Assembly (NCBI GenBank): GCA_023484515.1
Contig: JAMDAY010000010.1
Span: forward strand, 5,131-69,130
Reading direction: 5' to 3'
DNA length: 64,000 bases
From: Patescibacteria group bacterium
GTDB lineage: Bacteria; Patescibacteriota; Doudnabacteria; UBA920
Positions 833-24,927 of the stretch are shown here, piece by piece; the stretch's first letter is position 1, and every line of letters begins with the position of its first letter. The notes below the pieces were generated by a model. The model worked only from the letters and a program-made list of their open reading frames with translations. It made no database searches and was not told where the DNA came from. Both the position numbers and the translations under genes were made by a program.

Positions 833-866
833 GTGAAAAATTTGTACAATTGTACAAATTTTTCAC
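833..866. repeat. 34-nt perfect palindrome GTGAAAAATTTGTACAATTGTACAAATTTTTCAC, about 57 nt upstream of the 923 ORF
   Basis: Read directly: the reverse complement equals the sequence itself. A near-identical twin lies at 1605-1638. Confidence 0.6.
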
Positions 867-922
867 TTGTGATAGGCTTAGCTAAAGGGAAAATTTTAAA
901 ATAAATCAAATTTAGGAGGGTT

Positions 923-1597
923 ATGCCATATGGAAACCAAATAACTTTAGGCACTGCCGTGGCGCAATCGCTGCCGGACAAAAGGATTATTAAGCTTTCG
1001 CAAAAGCAGATGCAAACGCTAAAGACTGCCACGGAAGTGACCCTGGCTGTTGTTGCCGCAGCGGGAGTAGTATCTGTTTCGGTGGTGGCTCCGAATTTGT
1101 TTTCGGCTATGGGACATTTTTTACCAAAAGGAAAGAAATACAGCGGATATAGTCATAAACAAAAGGCAAAGAAGGTAGCCGAAACTTTTTATTATTTAAA
1201 ACGGACAGGACTCGTCCGGTTCAGGCAATCGGGCACGGATTGGCTGTTGTCATTGACAGATTTGGGCAGGCGCAGGCTGCCAAAATTGGAGGTGGATTCT
1301 CTGTCGGTCACAAAGCCCAAGAAATGGGACGGATCTTGGTGGGTGGTGGCGGCTGATATTCCGACCAAAGACTGCCGTCAAGGAGCGGATTTATTGCGTA
1401 GGAAGCTAAAGCAGTTAGGTTTCTATCCGCTGCAACGGACGTTGTGGCTATATCCTTTTGACCCCCGCCGCGAGATAGAATTTATCAGCCAGGCTTTCGG
1501 GATTGCCAGATTCGTTACTGTAATGAAAATAGCCGAGCTTGATACGCAGGACCTCGCAGTCTTGAAACCTTATTTTAAAAAGCTGAATTTGCTTTAG
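923..1597 (+). CDS. hypothetical protein, possibly a PaaX-like winged-helix regulator with an N-terminal hydrophobic segment
   Basis: The ORF has an AGGAGG RBS at 913-918. The C-terminal block WWVVAADIP...LGFYPLQRTLWLYPF resembles the PaaX C-terminal domain; this is weak similarity judged by eye. Both sides are flanked by 34-nt perfect palindromes. Confidence 0.4.
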   Translation: MPYGNQITLGTAVAQSLPDKRIIKLSQKQMQTLKTATEVTLAVVAAAGVVSVSVVAPNLFSAMGHFLPKGKKYSGYSHKQKAKKVAETFYYLKRTGLVRFRQSGTDWLLSLTDLGRRRLPKLEVDSLSVTKPKKWDGSWWVVAADIPTKDCRQGADLLRRKLKQLGFYPLQRTLWLYPFDPRREIEFISQAFGIARFVTVMKIAELDTQDLAVLKPYFKKLNLL

Positions 1598-1604
1598 TCT
1601 GTTA

Positions 1605-1638
1605 GTGAAAAAATTGTACAATTGTACAATTTTTTCAC
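1605..1638. repeat. 34-nt perfect palindrome GTGAAAAAATTGTACAATTGTACAATTTTTTCAC (extends to a 40-nt palindrome TTAG...CTAA at 1602-1641)
   Basis: Read directly. It differs from the 833-866 copy at one symmetric position pair, so each copy remains individually perfect. Confidence 0.6.
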
Positions 1639-1661
1639 TAACTTAACTTTTACCGCGATTA

Positions 1662-4072: not shown

Positions 4073-4756
4073 ATGGGTATTAAACAGCCGGACAGCTTGG
4101 CGGAAAGCTATGAAAAGCAGATTTTTCCTTTTCCGGAAGACCCTAAAAAAATCAAGGCGAGGATCCGCAATTCCGACGGCAGTGAAACAGGAAGGGAAAC
4201 CGAAAGCCAGACTGCCTCGCGGTTTTATCTGCAAAAAATCCTCCATTTGTTGCTTGCCGACAATATTCCCGACGCTTACGGATTTTCCCCCAAAGCCGGC
4301 GACGAAGGCTATCCTGAAATTATTTTGGAAAAAATGGATGTTGACAGCACTCACCGTGAAATGCAGGAGGCCAGAAACAGGCAGTTTGAGCTGGACAGGC
4401 AAAACATTTCCAGGACCGATCCGGCCAGGATGGGGCTTGTAGATTTTATTGCCGCTTTGGAAACGCGGAGAGAGCAGAATCCGCACGTGATAGAACTGAT
4501 GAACAAACTGCGGAACCTTTTCGTGGACAGGAGAGACGTCTGTTCCGGCAGGAATTACGCTTTTTACCGCAAGGGAAGCAGGGTGTGTGTTGTGTTTTTA
4601 GACAACCAGGTTGCCTGGAAATATGAAAACGGGAAGAAAAAGCCCGTGGTAAATTTTACCGCCTTAAAGCAGGCTGCGGAAGCGCTTGGCGAACCGGCCA
4701 GGAGCGAAGCATTGGGATATTACAAGCAATTATTTTCGCTTTACGAGCGGGGATAA
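4073..4756 (+). CDS. hypothetical protein
   Basis: ORF tightly following tkt (10-nt gap); no recognisable motif. Confidence 0.55.
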   Translation: MGIKQPDSLAESYEKQIFPFPEDPKKIKARIRNSDGSETGRETESQTASRFYLQKILHLLLADNIPDAYGFSPKAGDEGYPEIILEKMDVDSTHREMQEARNRQFELDRQNISRTDPARMGLVDFIAALETRREQNPHVIELMNKLRNLFVDRRDVCSGRNYAFYRKGSRVCVVFLDNQVAWKYENGKKKPVVNFTALKQAAEALGEPARSEALGYYKQLFSLYERG

Positions 4757-4786: not shown

Positions 4787-5752
4787 ATGGACCGCAATTT
4801 AGCTTTGGAATTCGTGCGGGTGACTGAGGCCGCGGCGATAGCCGCGGCTAAGTGGGTTGGCAAAGGGGAAGGTAAAAAAGCGGATGGCGCGGCAGTGGAC
4901 GAAATGCGGGACCGGTTTAACCAAATTGATTTTAAAGGCACGGTGGTAATAGGCGAAGGCAGTAAGGACGAAGCGCCGGAATTGTATAACGGGGAAAAGG
5001 TGGGCAGGGGATGGGGCAAGACAGCCGATAAATCGGCTAACTACAATTTTGACTTGGCCATTGATCCTTTGGAATGCACGGACAGCGTGGCATTCGGGCG
5101 GTATAACGCCATGTCCGTTATTGCGGCGGGGGCAAAGGGCAGCTTAATGAACGCGCCGGACACGTATATGGAAAAAATCGCGGTTGGCCCGGCTGCGGCA
5201 AAGGTAATTGATTTGGATGCGCCGGTAAAAACCAATTTGTCCAAGGTTGCCAAAGTTCTGGGCAAGAAGGTTGGCGACGTGACAGTTTGCATTTTGGACC
5301 GCGAGCGGCATTTTAATTTAATCAGCCAGGTGCGCCGGGCCGGCGCGCGGGTCCGCCTTATAACTGACGGCGACGTGGCCGGGGCAGTGGCCGCCTGCCT
5401 GCCCGAAAGCGGTATAGACGTGCTAATGGGCATTGGCGGCAGCACGGAGAGCGTGCTGGCGGCAGTGCCGATAAAAATTTTTGGCGGGCAAATTTTTTGC
5501 CGGTTCAAGCCCAAGGACAAACATCATTTAAATTTGGTCAAAAGGCACGGCCTAAATACCAAGAAAATTTATTCCGCGGAAGACCTGGCCAAGGGCAGCG
5601 TATTAACTTTTACCGCCACCGGCGTCATAGACGGCCCTTTGCTCCGGGGCGTGCGCTTTGCCGACCCCGTTATTGTCACGCATTCCATGGTTGTCCGCGG
5701 CCAAAGCGGCACTGTTCGTTATATTGTTGCACATCATCAAAATATTAATTAA
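4787..5752 (+). CDS. glpX: fructose-1,6-bisphosphatase class II (GlpX family)
   Basis: The N-terminus MDRNLALEFVRVTEAAAIAAAKWVGKGEGKKADGAAVDEMR and the block VVIGEGSKDEAPELYNGEKVG align residue-by-residue with GlpX. Confidence 0.9.
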   Translation: MDRNLALEFVRVTEAAAIAAAKWVGKGEGKKADGAAVDEMRDRFNQIDFKGTVVIGEGSKDEAPELYNGEKVGRGWGKTADKSANYNFDLAIDPLECTDSVAFGRYNAMSVIAAGAKGSLMNAPDTYMEKIAVGPAAAKVIDLDAPVKTNLSKVAKVLGKKVGDVTVCILDRERHFNLISQVRRAGARVRLITDGDVAGAVAACLPESGIDVLMGIGGSTESVLAAVPIKIFGGQIFCRFKPKDKHHLNLVKRHGLNTKKIYSAEDLAKGSVLTFTATGVIDGPLLRGVRFADPVIVTHSMVVRGQSGTVRYIVAHHQNIN

Positions 5753-5760
5753 GCGCACGT

Positions 5761-6096
5761 ATGAGAAAACATTATAGCGGGTTCAACCCTAAATTGGAAA
5801 CGATAGAAAAAATTACAATTCCCGATGAAGATTTAATAGGCTGGTTGCAAAGCCTGAAAGGTTTGGACAGGCAATTTATTGATAAAATGCTAAGTTCAAA
5901 AAACGAGCGATACCGGAAAGAGTTCCTAAGGCGGGCCATGGATTTTTTTAAGTCCAGCGGCGATTTCAGCGAATTTGTAACCAGGAGGGAACAGGAATTA
6001 GGCAAAGCCATTCCAGAATCGGAAATTCCCGAATTATTTGAGGAATTCCGGCATGAAATTGAGGAGGCATTTAAACGGGCGGGATATTTTGGATAA
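5761..6096 (+). CDS. hypothetical small protein
   Basis: ORF only. Confidence 0.4.
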   Translation: MRKHYSGFNPKLETIEKITIPDEDLIGWLQSLKGLDRQFIDKMLSSKNERYRKEFLRRAMDFFKSSGDFSEFVTRREQELGKAIPESEIPELFEEFRHEIEEAFKRAGYFG

Positions 6097-6110: not shown

Positions 6111-7133
6111 ATGATAGAACCATCAAAAATTTTAGAACTTAATAAAGTTGCCAAACAAATGGTAGCGGCGGGAAAGGGGATTCTGGCCGCGGACGAAAGC
6201 TTTAATACCATAGAAAAAAGATTTGCCAAAATCAATTTGCCTTCCACGGAAGAAAACCGCCGCGCTTACCGCGAAATGCTGTTTGCCGCGCCTGGAATTG
6301 GGGAGTATATCTCCGGCGTAATTATGTTTGACGAGACTATCCGCCAGCGCGCGACGGACGGCCATACTTTTGTTACAATTTTGGAAAAAGCCGGAGTGCT
6401 GCCTGGCATTAAGGTTGATTTGGGAACCAAGGAAATGGATGACTCGCCGAACGAAAAAGTCACCAAGGGCTTGGAAGGATTGCCTGACCGTTTGGCTCAA
6501 TATGCGCGCTTTGGCGCGAAATTCGCCAAATGGCGGGCCGTAATTGCCATTGACGAGGAATTGCCGACCGAAGCGAATATTGGGCAGAATGCCAGGGATT
6601 TGGCCAATTACGCCCTGGCCTGCCAGGAAGCGGGCTTAGTGCCTATGGTAGAACCGGAGGTGCTGATGGACGGCAGCCATACCCTGGAAAGATGCGAAGA
6701 AGTCAGTCTAAAGGTTTTGGAAGCCGTGTTTGCGGAATTAAAAAATGCGGGCGTGGCCTTTGAAGGCATGATACTTAAGACCAATATGGTGTTACCGGGC
6801 AAAGATTCGGGACAAGCTGCGGTTCCGGAAGAAATTGCCGCTGCTACGTTGGAGGTTTTTAAGAAGGCTTTGCCGAGTACCTTAGCCGGCCAGGCTTTTT
6901 TGTCCGGCGGACAAAGTGAAAAAGAAGCGACAGTTAATTTGAACGCCATAAACAAGCTGGGGCCGCATCCCTGGCCGCTGACGTTTTCCTATGGACGCGC
7001 CTTGCAGGACAGCGCCTTAAAAATTTGGGCCGGCAAGCCGGAAAACGCGCGGGCGGCGCGGGAAATTTTTCTTCATCGCGCCAAAATGAACGGCCTGGCC
7101 GCGGAAGGGAAGTATGGCGCAGAGATGGAGTAA
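6111..7133 (+). CDS. fba: fructose-bisphosphate aldolase, class I
   Basis: GKGILAADESFNTIEKRF...TEENRRAYREML...GVIMFDETIRQ matches the class I (Schiff-base) aldolase N-terminus. Confidence 0.9.
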   Translation: MIEPSKILELNKVAKQMVAAGKGILAADESFNTIEKRFAKINLPSTEENRRAYREMLFAAPGIGEYISGVIMFDETIRQRATDGHTFVTILEKAGVLPGIKVDLGTKEMDDSPNEKVTKGLEGLPDRLAQYARFGAKFAKWRAVIAIDEELPTEANIGQNARDLANYALACQEAGLVPMVEPEVLMDGSHTLERCEEVSLKVLEAVFAELKNAGVAFEGMILKTNMVLPGKDSGQAAVPEEIAAATLEVFKKALPSTLAGQAFLSGGQSEKEATVNLNAINKLGPHPWPLTFSYGRALQDSALKIWAGKPENARAAREIFLHRAKMNGLAAEGKYGAEME

Positions 7134-7287
7134 CGGGCGCCCAAAAGGGCGGCCCCTACAATGAAGTAATGCATTAATTTTTATTTTAGGGGCAGGCTTT
7201 AGCCGCCCGCCCCAAGGTTAGCGGTTAAAAAACCGCAAAAGAAAAAAATATGCTAGAATACAAATAACCTCATTAACATAAACACCA

Positions 7288-8103
7288 ATGCCAACGCCAA
7301 CAAACTTGGAAAAAACCAAACCCCGGACCGCAAAACCAAAAGCTAAAAATTTATTTCCCCATTTGCAAAATCATCTAAAAGATGACACGGTCTGCTTTGT
7401 TTCCAGCGGCCGGGAAATTTGCGTTCCCGCCGCGGAACTGGCCAAACTGTTCAGCGGCCGCACGCGCGAAGTTTCGCCGTGGACCATTTTCCGCATTATG
7501 GCGGAATTTATTAACGGGTTTGAATTTTTAAAGCGCTATAAAAAAGCCGTCAGCATTATGGGCAGCGCCCGTCCTAATTTGCAGAACGGGGTTTACCAGG
7601 AAGCCAGGGAACTGGCCTTTAAGCTGTCCAAGGCGGGTTTTGTGGTTATAACCGGCGGCGGGCCGGGAATAATGGAAGCGGCCAACAAAGGCGCATACGA
7701 AGCCGGCGGCCGCAGCGCGGGCATTAACATCAAGCTGCCGTCGGAACAGCGGACCAACGCTTACGTGAAGGAATCGGAAAGTTTTGACTTCTTTTTCACC
7801 AGGAAAGTAATGCTGGAGTTCGCTTCGCAGCTTTACGTGTTTTTCCCCGGCGGGTTCGGCACTTTGGATGAAATGTTTGAAATGGTCACCTTAATCCAGA
7901 CCAAAAAAATCGCGCCTGTTCCCATTATCTTAGTCAATAAAACTTTTTGGCAGCCGTTGTTGGACTGGATTAAGAATACAATTTACGGACAGAACAAGGC
8001 CATAGACGAAAAAGACATGGAAATTTACCACCTGGTGGACAGCGCCGAGGAAGCGTACGAGGTAATTAAGGAACTGACCAAGAAAAAACACCTATTTAAC
8101 TAA
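7288..8103 (+). CDS. LOG family protein (TIGR00730 Rossmann-fold nucleotide-binding; cytokinin riboside 5'-monophosphate phosphoribohydrolase-like) with a roughly 70-aa N-terminal extension
   Basis: SIMGSARPN...VITGGGPGIMEAANKGAYEAGG...GGFGTLDEMFE are LOG-family motifs. The start codon is uncertain. Confidence 0.8.
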   Translation: MPTPTNLEKTKPRTAKPKAKNLFPHLQNHLKDDTVCFVSSGREICVPAAELAKLFSGRTREVSPWTIFRIMAEFINGFEFLKRYKKAVSIMGSARPNLQNGVYQEARELAFKLSKAGFVVITGGGPGIMEAANKGAYEAGGRSAGINIKLPSEQRTNAYVKESESFDFFFTRKVMLEFASQLYVFFPGGFGTLDEMFEMVTLIQTKKIAPVPIILVNKTFWQPLLDWIKNTIYGQNKAIDEKDMEIYHLVDSAEEAYEVIKELTKKKHLFN

Positions 8104-8189
8104 TGACAAAAATTAAAAAAGTGACAAAAGTGACAAAATTTAATCCTTGGTAATTTTTATTATTTTTGTCATTTTTGATCATTTGATTT

Positions 8190-14953: not shown

Positions 14954-15238
14954 ATGGAATTAGAAGAAGTAAAAAGAAGAATTACCCCTATTTTAAACCG
15001 TTATGGCGTCAAGCGGGCGGCTGTTTTTGGCAGTGTCGCCAGGGGAGAGGCGGGCAGGGATAGCGATGTGGATTTGCTTATTGAACTTGACGAGCCGCTC
15101 GGTTTGTTCAAACTGGCCCAGCTAAACTATGTGCTGGAGGACGTTTTGCAGAAAAAAGTTGATTTAGTGAAAACCGAAAATATTAAACCATCTTTTAAGG
15201 ATAATATTTTAAAGGATGCGGTTTACATTTATGGCTAA
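14954..15238 (+). CDS. mntA: nucleotidyltransferase-domain antitoxin (MNT, type VII TA)
   Basis: GSVARGEAGRDSDVDLLIE is the Pol-beta-superfamily NTase motif (GS...D.D). Confidence 0.85.
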   Translation: MELEEVKRRITPILNRYGVKRAAVFGSVARGEAGRDSDVDLLIELDEPLGLFKLAQLNYVLEDVLQKKVDLVKTENIKPSFKDNILKDAVYIYG

Positions 15239-15572
15239 CGCAGAAACCGCCTACTTGCAGGACATTTTAGACAATATTGGAATTTTGGAGAAATTTTTAA
15301 GCGGCGTTGGGAAAGACGCGTTTTTTTCCGATTTGGAAAAACAGTTTGCGGCGGCCCGCGCTTTGGAGATTATCGGGGAAGCTTCCGCAAAACTTTCGGA
15401 AGATTTTCGGACAAAGCATCCGGAAATAGATTGGCGCGGATTAAAGTCTATGAGGAACTTGCTGATTCATGAATATGCATACGTTGATGCGGGAGAAGTC
15501 TGGAAAGCGGGCCAAAATGATGTCCCGGATTTAAAAGCGAAAATAAAAACCATCCTCGCACAAGCATTGTAG
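15231..15572 (+). CDS. hepT: HepT-like (DUF86/HEPN) toxin
   Basis: RNLLIHEYAYVD matches the R-X4-HXY HEPN motif. There is an 8-nt ATGGCTAA overlap with the MNT stop. Confidence 0.85.
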   Translation: MANAETAYLQDILDNIGILEKFLSGVGKDAFFSDLEKQFAAARALEIIGEASAKLSEDFRTKHPEIDWRGLKSMRNLLIHEYAYVDAGEVWKAGQNDVPDLKAKIKTILAQAL

Positions 15573-15578
15573 CATATT

Positions 15579-15637
15579 AAAATTCCGCCGAAATTTTACT
15601 TTTAATCTATCCATGGTAAAATTTCGGCGGAATTTTA
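15579..15637. terminator. strong hairpin: 21-bp perfect inverted repeat AAAATTCCGCCGAAATTTTAC / GTAAAATTTCGGCGGAATTTT with an 17-nt loop
   Basis: Read directly, immediately 3' of hepT. Confidence 0.65.
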
Positions 15638-15676
15638 AATGTTTGCTATAATATATAAAACCATTAACTTTTTACC

Positions 15677-17902
15677 ATGAAAACCAAGCCAGTTCTTTAT
15701 ATTTTCTTTATTTTAATCTGCTTTAGTTTGCTCACTCCGTTTGTCGTGGACAAAAATTACCTTTTTCCCTTTATTTTGCCCCGCGCCCTGTTTTTGCGCA
15801 TAGTCCTGGACATTGCCCTGCCCTTTTATTTATACCTCATATTAGCCAAAAAGGAATACCGCCCAAATTTAAAAAATCCGTTAAACCTTTCAGTTCTGGT
15901 TTTTTTGGGAGTTTACTTTATTACTTCCTTTACCGGCGTAGACGCGTTGCGCAGCGTGTGGGGCAACATTGAACGCATGGGCGGGGCGTGGTATATGATG
16001 CATCTGGTAATGCTGTATTTTTACGTGCTGCTTTTAGCCCAGGCCAGCGGCAGGCTGCTGCTGCGGTTTTTAAAAATTTTCCTGTGGGTGGCCAATGTTA
16101 CCGTATTTTACGGGTTGTGGGTATACTTGGGCCTGCCGGGTTTTTACGCGGACCCTTCGCTGCCTTCCCGCGTGTCTTCCAGTTTCGGCAATCCCATCTT
16201 TTTTGCCAGTTTCCTGGTGCTGCCGCTGTTTCTGTCCGTGTTTTTCGCCATCCAGGAAGAATCCAGGGCCTGGAAGGCAATATACGGGGTAATGGCGTTA
16301 TTGCAACTGTTCGGCATTTACCAGAGCGCCACGCGCGGCGCGTTTGTGGGCCTGGCGGCCGGCATATTTTTGGCGGCCGTGATGTTTTTGTTCAAGGCGG
16401 AATCGCGGCGCCTGCGCAATTGGGGAGTTGCCGCGGTCGGAGGCATAGTCCTGGTAGCCGGCGCGCTGTTCCTGTTCGGCGGCAAGCTGCCGTCCGGTTC
16501 GTTTTTATACCGCATTACCCATTTAAAGGACAGCAATTCCGAAGCCCGCCTGATCCAGTGGAAGACCGCCCTTCAAGGATACAAAGACAAGCCTGTTTTG
16601 GGCGTGGGCCCGGAAAATTACTATATCATCGCCAACAAATATTACAATCCCGAACTGAACAAGTACGATCCTTCCTGGTTTGACAAGCCGCATAACTATC
16701 TTTTGGAAATTTTAGTGACCACCGGCGCGGTAGGATTTGCCGCCTATCTGGCCATGCTGGCGTTTTTTGCCTGGAGCCTGTATAAGGCCTTTAAGGCCGG
16801 GTTGCTTTCGTGGCTGGAAACCTGCGTGCTTTTAGCCGGCATGCTGGCTTACCAGATCCAGAACTTGTTCGTGTTTGATACCATTTCCGCTTCCGTGGCC
16901 TTTTTCATTTATATGGGTTTTGGCGCGTATTTGTGGCATGAGTCGGAATTGGAAAAAAAACCGGCCCACAAAAAAATTATGTCCGGCCTTAGCCCCGCTT
17001 TCGTGAACGCGGCCGCAGGCGTGTCTGCGGTTGCCGTAATTTATGCCATTTACTTGACAAGTATTGTGCCGGGCCGGGTGGCAAAGAACATTAATTACGG
17101 CTACGCTTATTCCGGCATAGACCCGGTAAAGGCGGAACAATATTTTGAAGCCGCGCGCAACCAGCCGTTCGTGTTTGATCCGGGAGAATTGGGAGTGCGC
17201 TATGCGGACTTTGCCGCTAACGTGGCCCAAAACCCGCCGCAGGGGTTGTCCAAGGAAGAGATTGGCAAGATTACCGACCATGCCATAGCTTCTTTGGAGG
17301 ACGCAAATGCGCGCGTGCCCAATTATCCCATCTTTTGGTATAAATTGGCCCAGGCTTACAATACCAAAAGCCTGCTGGACAACGGGCCCGTGGACCCAAG
17401 GGCCGACCAGGCCGCGGCCAGGGCCGTGGAACTGGCACCCAAGCGGCCGGAAACCATAAGCTACCTTATCCAGGTAAAGGCCGCAGAGGGACAGACGGAT
17501 AAAGCAGTGTCATTGTCGGAGCAGTTGGCCCAATTGTACCCGTGGAATTCCGATTACGCCTGGCGCCTGGCAGTGGTGTACGATTTTGCCAAGCAGGACG
17601 AAAAAGCGGTTGCAACTGCGCAACAGGCGCTGGCCGCAGGCTACCAAATAAAGCAAACCAGTGACATCCAGTGGCTGGTAAAATATTATTCCGATAATAA
17701 AAATTATGCCGCTGCAATCGCATTATACCAGGCAGGGTTAAAAAATGACCCGACCAATGTCCAGCTTTTGAGCGGTTTGGCCCTGGCTTATGCCGACTCG
17801 GGCGACAAACAAAAGGCCATAGAGACCGCCAGGCAAATTGTTGTAATCCAGCCGGCGGCCAAGGACGACGTGGACAAATTCATCCAGGGCTTAAGCCAGT
17901 AA
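15677..17902 (+). CDS. Wzy_C (O-antigen ligase / PglL-WsaB-like oligosaccharyltransferase family) polytopic membrane protein with a C-terminal TPR domain
   Basis: Multiple TM helices. IYQSATRGAFVGLAAG and ARLIQWKTALQGYKDKPVLGVGPENY match Wzy_C signatures. The C-terminal roughly 250 aa carry TPR-like repeats. Confidence 0.8.
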   Translation: MKTKPVLYIFFILICFSLLTPFVVDKNYLFPFILPRALFLRIVLDIALPFYLYLILAKKEYRPNLKNPLNLSVLVFLGVYFITSFTGVDALRSVWGNIERMGGAWYMMHLVMLYFYVLLLAQASGRLLLRFLKIFLWVANVTVFYGLWVYLGLPGFYADPSLPSRVSSSFGNPIFFASFLVLPLFLSVFFAIQEESRAWKAIYGVMALLQLFGIYQSATRGAFVGLAAGIFLAAVMFLFKAESRRLRNWGVAAVGGIVLVAGALFLFGGKLPSGSFLYRITHLKDSNSEARLIQWKTALQGYKDKPVLGVGPENYYIIANKYYNPELNKYDPSWFDKPHNYLLEILVTTGAVGFAAYLAMLAFFAWSLYKAFKAGLLSWLETCVLLAGMLAYQIQNLFVFDTISASVAFFIYMGFGAYLWHESELEKKPAHKKIMSGLSPAFVNAAAGVSAVAVIYAIYLTSIVPGRVAKNINYGYAYSGIDPVKAEQYFEAARNQPFVFDPGELGVRYADFAANVAQNPPQGLSKEEIGKITDHAIASLEDANARVPNYPIFWYKLAQAYNTKSLLDNGPVDPRADQAAARAVELAPKRPETISYLIQVKAAEGQTDKAVSLSEQLAQLYPWNSDYAWRLAVVYDFAKQDEKAVATAQQALAAGYQIKQTSDIQWLVKYYSDNKNYAAAIALYQAGLKNDPTNVQLLSGLALAYADSGDKQKAIETARQIVVIQPAAKDDVDKFIQGLSQ

Positions 17903-19670: not shown

Positions 19671-20693
19671 ATGAAAAACACGCCCAAAGTCGCGCTAATC
19701 ACCGGCATTACCGGGCAGGACGGGTCATACTTGGCGGAATTGCTGCTGTCCAAGGGATACGAAGTCCACGGGATAATGCGGCGCGCCAGCACTTTTAATA
19801 CCGAGAGGATAGAGCAAATTTACCAGGATCCGCACGAGTCGCATAAGAGGCTGTTTTTGCACTACGGGGATTTGGCGGACGCCTCCAATTTAAACCATCT
19901 GCTTAAAAAAGTTAAGCCTGACGAAATTTACAATTTGGGCGCGCAGAGCCACGTGCGCGTCAGCTTTGACATTCCCGAATACACGGCCAATGTGACGGCT
20001 TTGGGCACGCTGCGCCTGCTGGACGCCATCCGCGAAAACGAAATTCAAACCAGGTTTTACCAGGCCGGGTCTTCGGAAATGTTCGGCGACGTTTTGGAAA
20101 CGCCGCAAAGCGAAAGCACGCCGTTTAACCCGGCTTCGCCCTATGGCGCGGCCAAGGTATTTGCCCACCACATTTGCAAGAATTACCGCGCTGCCTACAA
20201 TATGTTTATTTGCAACGGCATATTGTTCAATCACGAATCGGAGAGGCGCGGCAAGACTTTTGTGACGCGGAAAATTACCACCGGCATTGCCGAAATTTTA
20301 GCCGGCCGGCAGGACAAAATCTATTTGGGAAATTTGGACGCCAAGCGCGACTGGGGCTATGCGCCGGAATACGTGCAGGCTATGTGGCTGATGCTGCAGC
20401 AGGACAAGCCGGACGACTACGTGATTGCCACGGGCGAAACCCACAGCATTAGGGAATTTTTGGAAGAGGCTTTCGGCTTGCTGGGCATTAAGGATTGGGA
20501 AAAATACATTGGCATAGACCCCAAATACTACCGGCCGCAGGAAGTTAATTTGCTTTTGGGCAATGCCGGCAAAGCCAAAAAAATCTTGGGCTGGGAGCCG
20601 AAAGTGAAGTTTAAGGACCTGGTGCGCATAATGCTGGAAGCGGATGTTAAGGAAGCAGGGATGCAGTTGAAAGATTTAAAGATTGAAAATTAA
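19671..20693 (+). CDS. gmd: GDP-mannose 4,6-dehydratase
   Basis: [19 protein letters not shown]...GDLAD...[14 protein letters not shown]...[13 protein letters not shown] matches GMD throughout. Confidence 0.95.
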
Positions 20694-21692
<999 letters not shown>

Positions 21693-23587: not shown

Positions 23588-23767
23588 AACTAAAGTAAAT
23601 ATTTAAGTAAATATTTGCTTTTGATTGGCGTAAAGGAAGCAGGCCGCCTGATTCTTATTAGCTGATGTTTTAAGGTTTTAGCCGTTAATTTATCCACAAT
23701 TGACCTATCTTGACACCCAATGACCTGTTATGATACTGTAAAAGCAGTTAAAATAAACTTTCTTTCC

Positions 23768-24013
23768 ATGGCAGAAATCAAGCCAAATGAAGTATATACT
23801 ACCGAAGAAACGCAGGAGTTGCTGAAAGTCAGCAATAGCACTATTAAACGCATGTTGAAAAACGGTTTGCTCCGGGCCAACAAAGTCGGCAAGCAGTATC
23901 GCATAATGGGGCATGAAATTTTAAGGCTGGTCAGCCCGGAAGTGGAGCAAAAAGCCGTGGAAAAGTACCAGCAAATTAAAACCAAAGTCAGGGAAGGGAC
24001 AAAAAACTGGTAA
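23768..24013 (+). CDS. excisionase-family helix-turn-helix DNA-binding protein
   Basis: YTTEETQELLKVSNSTIKRMLKNGLLRANKVGKQYRI matches the excisionase/MerR-type HTH (TIGR01764-like). The ORF track starts earlier, at 23720. Confidence 0.55.
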   Translation: MAEIKPNEVYTTEETQELLKVSNSTIKRMLKNGLLRANKVGKQYRIMGHEILRLVSPEVEQKAVEKYQQIKTKVREGTKNW

Positions 24014-24107
24014 CCCTACTAAAGTACCAAAATGTACCAAAATACGAAATCTGCTACAAATTTGGGTTAATTTAGTACTTTAGTATTATTTAGTATTTTA
24101 GTAGGGG
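24014..24107. repeat. solo inverted-repeat pair of the TACTAAAG motif family (termini CCCTACTAAA ... TTTAGTAGGGG), with about 26 nt between the arms
   Basis: Read directly. It has the same termini as the repeats flanking the GxxExxY gene at 24929-25390. Confidence 0.55.
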
Positions 24108-24108
24108 T

Positions 24109-24927
24109 ATGGAAATTATAATTCGACCAAAAAGCAAATGGTGGCATTTGGACCTGGGAGAGCTTTGGACTTTCCGCGATTTATTTTATTTTTTAACCTG
24201 GCGGGACGTTAAGGTCAAATACAAGCAGACCATTGTGGGGGTGCTGTGGGCCGTGTTCCAGCCGTTTGTGACCATGGTGGTGTTTTCGGTTTTTTTCGGC
24301 AGGCTGGCTAAAATGCCTTCGGAGGGGGTGCCTTACCCGATTTTTGTTTACACCGGCCTTATTTTTTGGACTTTGTTTTCCGCGGGACTGACCGACACCA
24401 GCGGCTCATTCGTTTCTAATTCCCAGATTGTGACCAAAGTATACTTTCCCCGCGTTATTTTGCCCACGGCCACGGTGCTGACAAACATGGTGGACTTTGC
24501 CATTGCGGCAATCATTCTGGTGGGGTTGATGTTTTATTACCACTACACCCCCACGCTTTTGGGGATTGTGCTAATTCCGGTCCTAATTTTAATGACCATT
24601 TTAAGCACGCTGGGCGTGGGTTTGCTGTTCGGGTCTTTGAACGTAAAATACCGCGACGTCAGGTTTATTTTGCCGTTTTTTATCCAGTTGCTGATTTTCA
24701 TCACGCCGGTCATTTACCCCGTTACCATTGTTTCGGAAAAATACCGCTGGATTTTGGGCCTTAACCCCATGTCCGGGGTAATAGACGTTGCGCGGGCAGG
24801 GCTTTTGGGAATTAAGTCCATAGACTGGGGGCTGCTGCTTGTTTCCATAATAAGCATGACAGTGTATTGCGTTGTCGGATACCTTTACTTCAAGGTGGTG
24901 GAGCGGTATTTCGCAGACGTTATTTAA
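24109..24927 (+). CDS. wzm: ABC-2 type polysaccharide exporter permease (Wzm/TagG-like)
   Basis: WRDVKVKYKQTIVGVLWAVFQPF and six predicted TM segments, the ABC-2 permease signature. Confidence 0.85.
   Translation: MEIIIRPKSKWWHLDLGELWTFRDLFYFLTWRDVKVKYKQTIVGVLWAVFQPFVTMVVFSVFFGRLAKMPSEGVPYPIFVYTGLIFWTLFSAGLTDTSGSFVSNSQIVTKVYFPRVILPTATVLTNMVDFAIAAIILVGLMFYYHYTPTLLGIVLIPVLILMTILSTLGVGLLFGSLNVKYRDVRFILPFFIQLLIFITPVIYPVTIVSEKYRWILGLNPMSGVIDVARAGLLGIKSIDWGLLLVSIISMTVYCVVGYLYFKVVERYFADVI

Follow-up and report, generated by a model that had tools for sequence, protein, structure and literature searches.

A minimal PaaX-like gene of Patescibacteria between two perfect palindromes, its putative operators

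Introduction

Why should a small bacterial gene stand between two long and perfect palindromes, one just ahead of its start and the other directly behind its stop codon? The question is raised by a 64 kb stretch of one Patescibacteria (Doudnabacteria) contig, hereafter the window. The gene is the open reading frame (ORF) at positions 923-1597 of the forward (+) strand, which encodes a PaaX_M-family protein of 224 amino acids (aa), identical to the protein M1383_01800 of an NCBI Patescibacteria metagenome-assembled genome (MAG), and which is flanked by the palindromes P1 (upstream) and P2 (downstream). To our knowledge, few transcription factors can be recognised in the Patescibacteria (candidate phyla radiation), very few indeed, and we know of no experimental study of their regulation. 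Our literature search found no paper on the present family or its layout, on PaaX in connection with Cas2 (or Cas2-like domains) or with Patescibacteria, or on perfect palindromes in the candidate phyla radiation.

Herein we conclude that the palindromes are very probably the binding sites of the flanked protein, and we put at roughly 0.6 the probability that P1 and P2 are the cognate putative operators of a minimal PaaX-like autorepressor encoded between them. The comparison of loci points to a large family of self-regulating repressors that would carry their own binding sites.

Two perfect palindromes frame the gene

A sequence-only reading of this stretch had described two perfect palindromes of 34 nt on either side of ORF 923-1597, and both are indeed present, although slightly longer (36 and 42 nt). 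P1 (832-867) is spacer-free and reads AGTGAAAAATTTGTACAA up to its dyad at 849/850 and TTGTACAAATTTTTCACT beyond it, while P2 (1601-1642) reads GTTAGTGAAAAAATTGTACAA and TTGTACAATTTTTTCACTAAC on the two sides of its dyad at 1621/1622; each is 100% self-complementary. In P1, an inner box, TTGT at 850-853 together with its mirror, has an AT spacer outside it and further out an outer box, ...TTTTCACT (860-867 and mirror). The gene itself starts with an ATG that lies 4 nt past the end of a Shine-Dalgarno sequence, AGGAGGG (912-918, + strand). The gap from the end of P1 to this ATG is 55 nt and that from the stop codon to the start of P2 is 3 nt, with a separation of ~770 bp between the palindromes and a palindrome-gene-palindrome unit of ~810 bp.

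The possibility that such palindromes are a common terminator motif had been raised together with their description. P1 and P2 turned out to be the only such sites in the window: the 16-mer core TTGTACAATTGTACAA occurs twice, in P1 and in P2, even when three mismatches are allowed, and the pattern GTGAAAA-N14-24-TTTTCAC likewise has two occurrences against 0.02 expected, a count reached in 0 of 100 shuffled sequences. A genome-wide motif or terminator was rejected on the basis of these two sites in 64 kb, the lack of a T-tract across the family and the low GC content of the stems.

Within the 34-nt core, the sole difference between P1 and P2 is at position 9 from the dyad, where both arms differ and do so in a complementary manner, so that both palindromes stay perfect; this earlier observation can be read directly from the sequence. 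We estimate the chance that the second of two independent substitutions mirrors the first at ~1% (1/33 × 1/3). The position falls inside a spacer that is loosely constrained across the family.

The layout recurs across a Patescibacteria gene family

Homologues of the protein are numerous: clustered at 50% identity, those found at E ≤ 1e-30 make up 824 clusters, and a limit of E ≤ 1e-10 raises the number to 3,107. We retrieved 80 genome loci (L001-L080), all of them from Patescibacteria MAGs, several of which hold 2-5 copies of the gene; 74 of the loci are complete for site pairing. Long, loop-less palindromes recur around the homologues in the 80 loci, and their sequence varies between loci while being near-identical within a locus. 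Using a pairing test that is free of any assumption of symmetry (for each gene, the 200 nt ahead of it were compared with the 130 nt behind it and the best match over 24 nt was scored, with a threshold of at least 19/24), matched upstream and downstream sites were found in 66 of the 74 complete loci (89%), against a maximum of 18/24 in cross-locus controls. The dyad symmetry of these sites has a median of 16-17 of 20 positions, compared to a control median of 10 and a control maximum of 14. The median distance is 40 nt from the upstream dyad to the start codon and 27 nt from the stop to the downstream dyad. Site pairs, in this case imperfect ones, also accompany the closest metagenome homologues (57-66% identical).

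The genes around these units are not conserved across the 80 loci and show no clustering, no conserved partner gene was found among them, and 29 of 72 downstream neighbours (40%) are convergent. The relative orientation of the paired sites is mixed, some loci having direct and others inverted pairs. The outer boxes of paralogues from a single MAG (44-48% identical) are unrelated, and since paralogues of one genome have different sites, each site goes with its own protein. In four genomes the cassette is found beside the same conserved upstream gene, which appears to be rsmI-like. Among these four, the inner box is conserved and the outer boxes share 2-6 of 8 positions, with the proteins 37-66% identical as compared to 56-76% for the neighbour gene.

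These data bear directly on the possibility that the sites belong to another factor, or are by-products of a palindrome-generating mutational process, with no functional link to the gene between them. Inverted repeats can become perfect in the absence of selection through quasi-palindrome template switching, which is a possible source of such sites. However, the co-occurrence with the gene family and the differences between paralogues of one genome speak against it, as does the low background of comparable palindromes in the far flanks (0.16 per kb, many of which are ordinary GC-rich terminators), and we regard this explanation as scarcely credible.

Most loci have exactly two sites, and the extra ones found in some look like small local regulons. 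One locus (L029) has four sites, which bracket two further genes, one with a phosphoenolpyruvate (PEP)-utiliser domain, and another (L032) has three, including one that precedes an operon with a secreted lipase-like protein. In a search with a 20-nt half-site from a Rifle Doudnabacteria genome, a 355-kb contig of that organism showed the succession of site, PaaX_M gene, site, gene for a 251-aa protein, site and metallopeptidase-like gene, and a fourth copy was found on a 66-kb contig of the same sample, possibly from another organism, upstream of an 81-aa ORF.

Two observations were made in passing on these contigs. L029 has large ORFs of no known family at 460-2894 and 6310-7746, the second of which ends in a PEP-utilising mobile domain and is bracketed by sites. 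The contig with the fourth half-site copy (L094) has two LAGLIDADG-like ORFs (5074-5652 and 6478-6975, with the motifs ILGFVDGEGCF and IAGFLDGDGC) adjoining a stretch with only short spurious ORFs, which is probably a ribosomal RNA operon with introns.

Anatomy of the half-sites

In order to describe the sites across loci, the four half-sites of each of 54 loci were read outward from the dyad. Positions 1-4 (W-T/G-G-C/T), the inner box, agree within a locus at 0.89-0.98 (0.95-0.98 at positions 2-4) and are conserved across loci. Positions 5-10 form an AT-rich spacer, the least constrained part, with an agreement of 0.81-0.89 and an arm-to-arm symmetry of 0.71-0.81. Positions 11-18, the outer box, again agree at 0.87-0.98 (0.94-0.98 at positions 13-16) and vary between loci. 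This dip of symmetry in the middle of the arm is a better fit to two protein contact zones than to a uniformly paired hairpin stem. The central 4 nt of the family sites are usually self-complementary.

Partial Mantel tests showed that similarity of the inner box follows the Cas2-like domain of the protein (r = 0.44, p = 0.001), while similarity of the outer box weakly follows the winged-helix region (r = 0.09, p = 0.02). These results agree with a division of labour in which the inner box would be matched to the Cas2-like domain and the outer box to the winged helix.

From the mirrored difference at position 9, the sequence-only reading had proposed selection on two-fold symmetry, and this proposal stands in part. 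Concerted change is common in the family: among the variants present in exactly two of the four half-sites, 39 are symmetric within one site, 41 lie on the same side of both sites and 20 are crosswise. The symmetric ones (39) are thus no commoner than asymmetries that are common to both sites (41 + 20), so the concerted change is not specifically intra-palindromic, and the spacer is the least symmetric part of the site.

The same anatomy helps to weigh a reading at the RNA level, in which the palindromes would form transcript hairpins, either stabilising the 5' and 3' ends of the message or serving as intrinsic (bidirectional) terminators that insulate the gene. Predicted hairpins are indeed stable (-19.8 kcal/mol for P1 and -24.7 kcal/mol for P2, z -6.3 and -9.0), both palindromes are picked up by a loose terminator scan, P2 on the + strand and P1 on the - strand, and P2 lies right past the stop codon. 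On the other hand, the family as a whole shows no T-tract behind the stems, such tracts being no more frequent outward than inward (at least 5 T in 8 nt at 29% of downstream sites in the outward direction, compared to 15-25% in the other three directions), the stems have 30% GC, and ordinary GC-rich terminators stand further downstream in several loci. P1 appears to hold a -35 element, so it would be mostly untranscribed, and on the sense strand G:T mismatches are not in excess of A:C ones (14 vs 10). Symmetry is lowest in mid-stem, the would-be loop (the central 4 nt) is usually self-complementary, and an Rfam search gave only sub-threshold look-alikes of eukaryotic microRNAs. We therefore consider hairpins at the RNA level a very unlikely explanation.

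A PaaX-type fold with a hydrophobic N-terminal segment

The protein had been thought to look like a winged-helix or PaaX-C-like protein. A winged helix and a PaaX-family fold are predicted, and the domain recognised is the central PaaX_M and not PaaX_C. The only Pfam domain is PF20803 (PaaX_M, E 2e-13, 50.6 bits against a cut-off of 24) at aa 133-208, which corresponds to the Cas2-like central domain of PaaX (1319-1546, + strand) and is present in all 97 homologues. The C-terminal effector domain of PaaX, PF08223 (PaaX_C), had no Pfam match at E ≤ 1, and the protein ends 16 residues past the Cas2-like domain. PF07848, the N-terminal winged helix of PaaX, had no Pfam match either, and aa 85-128 align by profile with the recognition helix and wing of PaaX. 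The NCBIfam equivalog model TIGR02277 (PaaX) gave a weak, partial match (23.1 bits against a cut-off of 264.55), and weak NCBIfam and PHROG matches fall on aa 75-118, the function of the PHROG family being not known.

The predicted winged-helix region covers codons ~75-126 (1145-1300, + strand), with helices at 78-94 and 113-126 and a beta-hairpin wing at 98-111. In a search of the PDB with a profile of 40 homologues, aa 85-203 aligned to residues 57-171 of E. coli PaaX, i.e., the recognition helix, the wing and the Cas2-like domain, and the winged helix aligned weakly with AspA. The AlphaFold model has a mean predicted local distance difference test (pLDDT) score of 74.5, the C-terminal domain scoring above 90 and the winged helix 66-79, with low values in the first 60 residues. 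Its top Foldseek matches in the PDB were E. coli PaaX (8a39) and Rv0674 (3kfw), together with 3l09; the C-terminal domain matched Cas2 structures (3exc, 5zyf, 5xvn and 6jhz), and the winged helix matched MarR, ArsR, AspA and TubR. A sequence search of the C-terminal domain against the PDB was uninformative. Profile and structure searches, which had been suggested to see if the 224-aa protein has a DNA-binding fold, thus both find their best matches in the PaaX family and predict such a fold.

In the alignment of 40 homologues used for conservation, W135 and D145 (the latter in a motif AADIPT) are invariant, as is P57. D145 lies at the end of beta-1 of the Cas2-like fold and is the putative equivalent of the catalytic aspartate of Cas2. 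Codons 39-57 (1037-1093, + strand; VTLAVVAAAGVVSVSVVAP) form a hydrophobic, transmembrane-like helix with a Kyte-Doolittle value of 2.22, a segment across which AlphaFold confidence is low. The segment is a family trait: a Kyte-Doolittle scan (19-aa mean) of 54 members gave at least 1.6 in 45 of them, with the peak at a median residue of 35.

This conserved N-terminal helix is the starting point for a structural alternative, in which a membrane-anchored protein would bind its flanking sites and so fix the locus to the membrane, or would act as a centromere-like or domain-boundary element. The sites bracket the gene whatever the orientation of the neighbours, and genomes with 2-5 or more paralogues, each with distinct sites, could have several anchor points. 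The winged helix is also weakly similar to the centromere-binding proteins AspA and TubR, but this similarity (E about 0.1) is generic for winged helices, and no partner ATPase or partition genes were found nearby. The charges flanking the hydrophobic helix leave its topology unsettled, and the precise overlap of P1 with promoter elements (below) points to regulation instead, which together make a tether improbable.

The upstream site overlaps a promoter-like arrangement

The sequence-only reading had placed both palindromes in promoter regions, P1 in that of the flanked gene and P2 in that of the next one, and this probably holds for the first of the two. The putative promoter of the flanked gene (850-878, + strand) consists of a -35-like TTGTAC (850-855), a 17-nt spacer and an extended -10, TGaTAGGCT (870-878). 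The -35-like element is the right inner half of P1, and the -10 hexamer starts 23 nt from the dyad. The arrangement is conserved in the family: counting -10-like hexamers of the pattern TAnnnT, 27-28 were found 20-25 nt from the dyad of the upstream sites in 65-66 loci, and the modal offset of 23 (10 matches) equals a 17-nt spacer counted from the TTG core of the right inner box. In the same bin, 2 matches were counted at the downstream sites of the 37 loci whose next gene is co-directional, and 4 at those of the 23 loci whose next gene is convergent.

P2 has no -10 after it at promoter spacing, and the promoter-like TTGAAT-17-TATAAT that would serve ORF 1743-2159 and tkt (1708-1736, + strand) lies 66 nt past P2 with no overlap. 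An ordinary terminator follows the downstream site in several loci. Because 29 of 72 neighbours are convergent, terminators follow and a -10 is lacking, the position of P2 is tied to the 3' end of the flanked gene and not to the next promoter. P2 as an operator of the next gene with the geometry of P1 was accordingly rejected, given the missing -10 spacing and the 40% of convergent neighbours. Palindromes of at least 16/20 are present downstream in 46 loci compared to 40 upstream, and such slightly better downstream palindromes are as expected if only the upstream site must accommodate promoter elements.

As a separate observation, -10-like hexamers were also counted on the minus strand of the upstream sites in L001-L080, where 41 lie 20-31 nt from the dyad in 65 loci. 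This count compares with 13 on the + strand of downstream sites and hints at a divergent promoter or a mirrored arrangement.

A model of autorepression

The suggestion of an autoregulatory operator pair is plausible in view of the family-wide pairing and the overlap of P1 with the promoter-like elements, and it can be given the following form. The repressor would have a hydrophobic anchor at its N terminus, followed by a winged helix and a Cas2-like domain for dimerisation, and would lack a C-terminal domain that binds an effector. One dimer would occupy each ~40-bp dyad, its winged helices reading the outer boxes 11-18 bp on each side of the centre and its Cas2-like dimer lying over the conserved centre (CA-WW-TG plus flanks). 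Since P1 would overlap the gene's own promoter, with the right inner box as the -35, occupancy of P1 would shut the gene off. P2, which has no promoter and is slightly more perfect, would be an auxiliary operator, either looping over ~770 bp to P1 or acting as a roadblock, and in some genomes it may serve the next gene too; this is the least certain part of the model. The gene with its sites would form an accessory module, gained by the lineage between metK and tkt.

Several points weigh against such an autorepressor. The perfect symmetry over 36-42 nt, spacer and centre included, exceeds what a PaaX-type operator needs, and the 39 variants that are symmetric in one site suggest that a base-pairing constraint, or templated (quasi-palindrome) mutation, acts on top of protein recognition. 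The downstream site is near-obligatory next to the stop codon, also in loci whose next gene is convergent, a position of no obvious regulatory logic. The -10 in the window (TAGGCT) is weak and a generic promoter scan missed the arrangement at 850-878, while the correlation between outer box and winged helix is small. A transmembrane-like helix N-terminal to the DNA-binding domain is unusual for a repressor, the invariant Asp of the Cas2-like beta-1 could mean catalysis and not dimerisation alone, and the target genes in the window would be the gene itself, possibly the next ORF, and nothing more.

Because the site at the stop codon, the excess symmetry of the window sites, the invariant Asp and the membrane-type helix are left unexplained, there is room for an unusual function, albeit an unlikely one. 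A membrane-anchored dimer might act on the dyad centre of its own palindromes, either catalytically or by pinning the locus to the membrane, as a selfish or a chromosome-organising element. In the catalytic version, the invariant Asp, placed on the two-fold axis, would nick or resolve the palindromes and thereby allow the cassette to be excised, copied or homogenised. Such an element would be specific to Patescibacteria and have no described counterpart.

An accessory segment between metK and tkt

The window neighbours of the unit are metK, a 138-aa ORF (1743-2159) of no known function, tkt and glpX. In the three closest tkt orthologues (72-75% identical, on five contigs from different samples: L085, L086/L087 and L088/L089), metK adjoins tkt across a spacer of 53-183 nt that has an ordinary terminator and a TATAAT, and no palindrome, PaaX_M gene or 138-aa ORF was found between the two genes. 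The segment missing from these relatives (735-2164, + strand) holds P1, ORF 923-1597, P2 and the 138-aa ORF, and it would be an insertion relative to the three, or else was lost in all of them; its direction and exact borders are inferred, the relatives being distant.

An alternative to the autorepressor that follows from this presence and absence, and that had also been put forward from the sequence alone, is a selfish or mobile cassette. In it, the palindromes would be ends or recombination sites and the winged-helix/Cas2-like protein a site-specific nuclease or recombinase acting at the dyad. Many insertion sequence (IS) elements have a compact repeat-ORF-repeat structure, with the transposase promoter in the left inverted repeat and the stop codon abutting the right one, and the present unit has the look of a minimal insertion sequence, the ORF filling the space between repeats of which P1 would carry the promoter. 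Several diverged copies per genome, the invariant D145 at the end of beta-1, neighbours that are not conserved and closest homologues (57-66% identical) in unrelated gene contexts all agree with mobility. Contig ends are also close to more loci than expected (13 vs 6.8 within 500 nt), although the trend is not significant (Kolmogorov-Smirnov p 0.11).

While the synteny of the relatives thus fits an insertion, hallmarks of transposition are missing. PF20803 is the sole domain match, with no transposase or recombinase domain and no DDE, HUH, serine or tyrosine recombinase match. The loci gave no target-site duplication, the longest word shared by the flanks having a mean of 5.13 compared to 4.93 (sd 1.12) in controls and being 4 nt in the window. 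Near-identical copies are also lacking: the exact protein was found on one contig only, annotated as hypothetical, the next best match is 69% identical, a second copy in the 64-kb window was found neither by tblastn nor by profile search, and an exact scan for the palindromes in a metagenome collection gave no match. The mixed orientation of the sites, the extra sites upstream of unrelated genes and the finding of no relatives on viral contigs argue in the same direction, and the cassettes kept at one position in four genomes, with proteins down to 37-66% identity, imply long vertical residence. We hence consider a mobile cassette improbable; should the module prove to be mobile or to act as a catalyst, a new class of element would be at hand. 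A phage or defence origin was also examined and rejected, with no relatives on viral contigs, one weak PHROG match and no PADLOC match.

Some minor observations concern the same operon. Three ORFs without family matches lie inside metK-tkt-glpX, at 1743-2159 (138 aa), 4073-4756 (227 aa) and 5761-6096 (111 aa), and the closest relatives are without them at these positions, with tkt followed directly by glpX in L088. No homologue of the 138-aa ORF was found in any fetched locus, and for the 111-aa ORF a homologue with 35% identity lies close to the PaaX_M locus in a Doudnabacteria genome (L091/L003). The 138-aa ORF begins with ATGAAC a few bases past the TATAAT (1726-1748), like the start of tkt in L088 (TATAATGATTTTATGAAC), and tkt of the window likewise begins with ATGAAC (2160-2175). 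The 138-aa ORF may have been inserted at the old tkt start, capturing the tkt promoter. In L088, a relative free of the cassette, a DDE transposase (PF13701/PF01609; 93-1403) lies ~1.2 kb upstream of metK.

Comparison with known systems

PaaX is a phenylacetyl-CoA-responsive repressor of E. coli and Pseudomonas (PDB 8a39, 3l09) with the domains PF07848, PF20803 and PF08223. The present protein resembles it in having a Cas2-like central (dimerisation) domain, preceded by a predicted winged helix, and its best profile and structure matches are to PaaX. The E. coli PaaX operator is reported as TGATTC-N27-GAATCA (PMC9493321), and this N27 spacing puts the hexamers 14-19 bp from the dyad, the geometry of the outer box. 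Steric hindrance is also the means by which E. coli PaaX shuts off its own promoter (PMC9493321). The present sites, judged from sequence, likewise resemble a long dyad operator with recognition elements ~27 bp apart, of which the upstream one overlaps a promoter-like arrangement. The present protein is unlike PaaX in its size (224 aa vs ~316), its extra N-terminal hydrophobic helix and its missing C-terminal effector domain. Its sites also have a palindromic interior with a conserved centre, and one of them lies past the stop codon. No paa (phenylacetate catabolism) genes are found nearby, and among the loci retrieved the family was met only in Patescibacteria genomes.

For PaaX-type recognition there is at present no structure of an operator complex (PMC9493321). 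In the present family, often with 2-5 members per genome, every gene is accompanied by two copies of its ~40-bp site, so that the genome sequence itself shows the putative DNA target. Dozens of natural protein/site pairs with orthogonal specificities could hence make up a data set for decoding PaaX-type recognition, and such pairs could help to build orthogonal repressors. The family also raises the questions of why a second site stands at the stop codon, why there is a membrane-type helix, and whether the Cas2-like domain only dimerises.

Of the other systems with a similar outline, phage lambda has the triple operators OL and OR, which are 2.4 kb apart, bracket the cI region and loop for autoregulation in the switch between lysis and lysogeny. 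As in lambda, the putative repressor gene lies between its own putative operators, one of them over its putative promoter, and long-range co-operation is plausible for the second site; the fold is unrelated to that of CI, and looping would be an extrapolation here. RAYT (REP-associated tyrosine transposase) genes encode an HUH/Y1 transposase and are single-copy, vertically inherited and flanked by cognate repetitive extragenic palindromic (REP) sequences, which are also dispersed through the genome. The present family shares the single-copy, vertically inherited gene and the flanking by cognate palindromes on both sides, with different palindromes for paralogues, but it lacks the HUH/Y1 domain, and instead of being dispersed its palindromes number two in the 64 kb of the window and no more than a handful in other genomes. 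The likeness to insertion sequences in the compact repeat-ORF-repeat structure, the promoter in the left repeat and the presence/absence versus close relatives is offset by the lack of a known transposase fold, a target-site duplication or identical copies, and by the mixed orientation of the repeats. With Cas2 and VapD-like nucleases the protein has in common a ferredoxin-like fold and the invariant Asp at the end of the first strand, which by analogy might mean nuclease activity. Unlike in Cas2, this domain is fused to a winged helix and a hydrophobic helix, and no cas1 or other cas gene was found among the locus ORFs or in the Pfam and PADLOC results. The two palindromes, ~770 bp apart on either side of a gene, also differ from a CRISPR array.

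Other inverted repeats in the window

The window has further inverted repeats that were recorded alongside P1 and P2. A perfect 23-nt inverted repeat with a 16-nt spacer (TTAAAATTCCGCCGAAATTTTAC ... GTAAAATTTCGGCGGAATTTTAA) occupies 15577-15638, starting 5 nt past the stop of ORF 15216-15572 and ahead of ORF 15677-17902, and may be another operator or else a terminator. Long imperfect inverted repeats, rich in AT and 80-94% complementary, with arms 18-25 nt apart, are found at 24017-24085, 8102-8173 and 20667-20731; they have no sequence relation to P1 or P2, and the first of them lies in the gap between ORFs 23720-24013 and 24109-24927.

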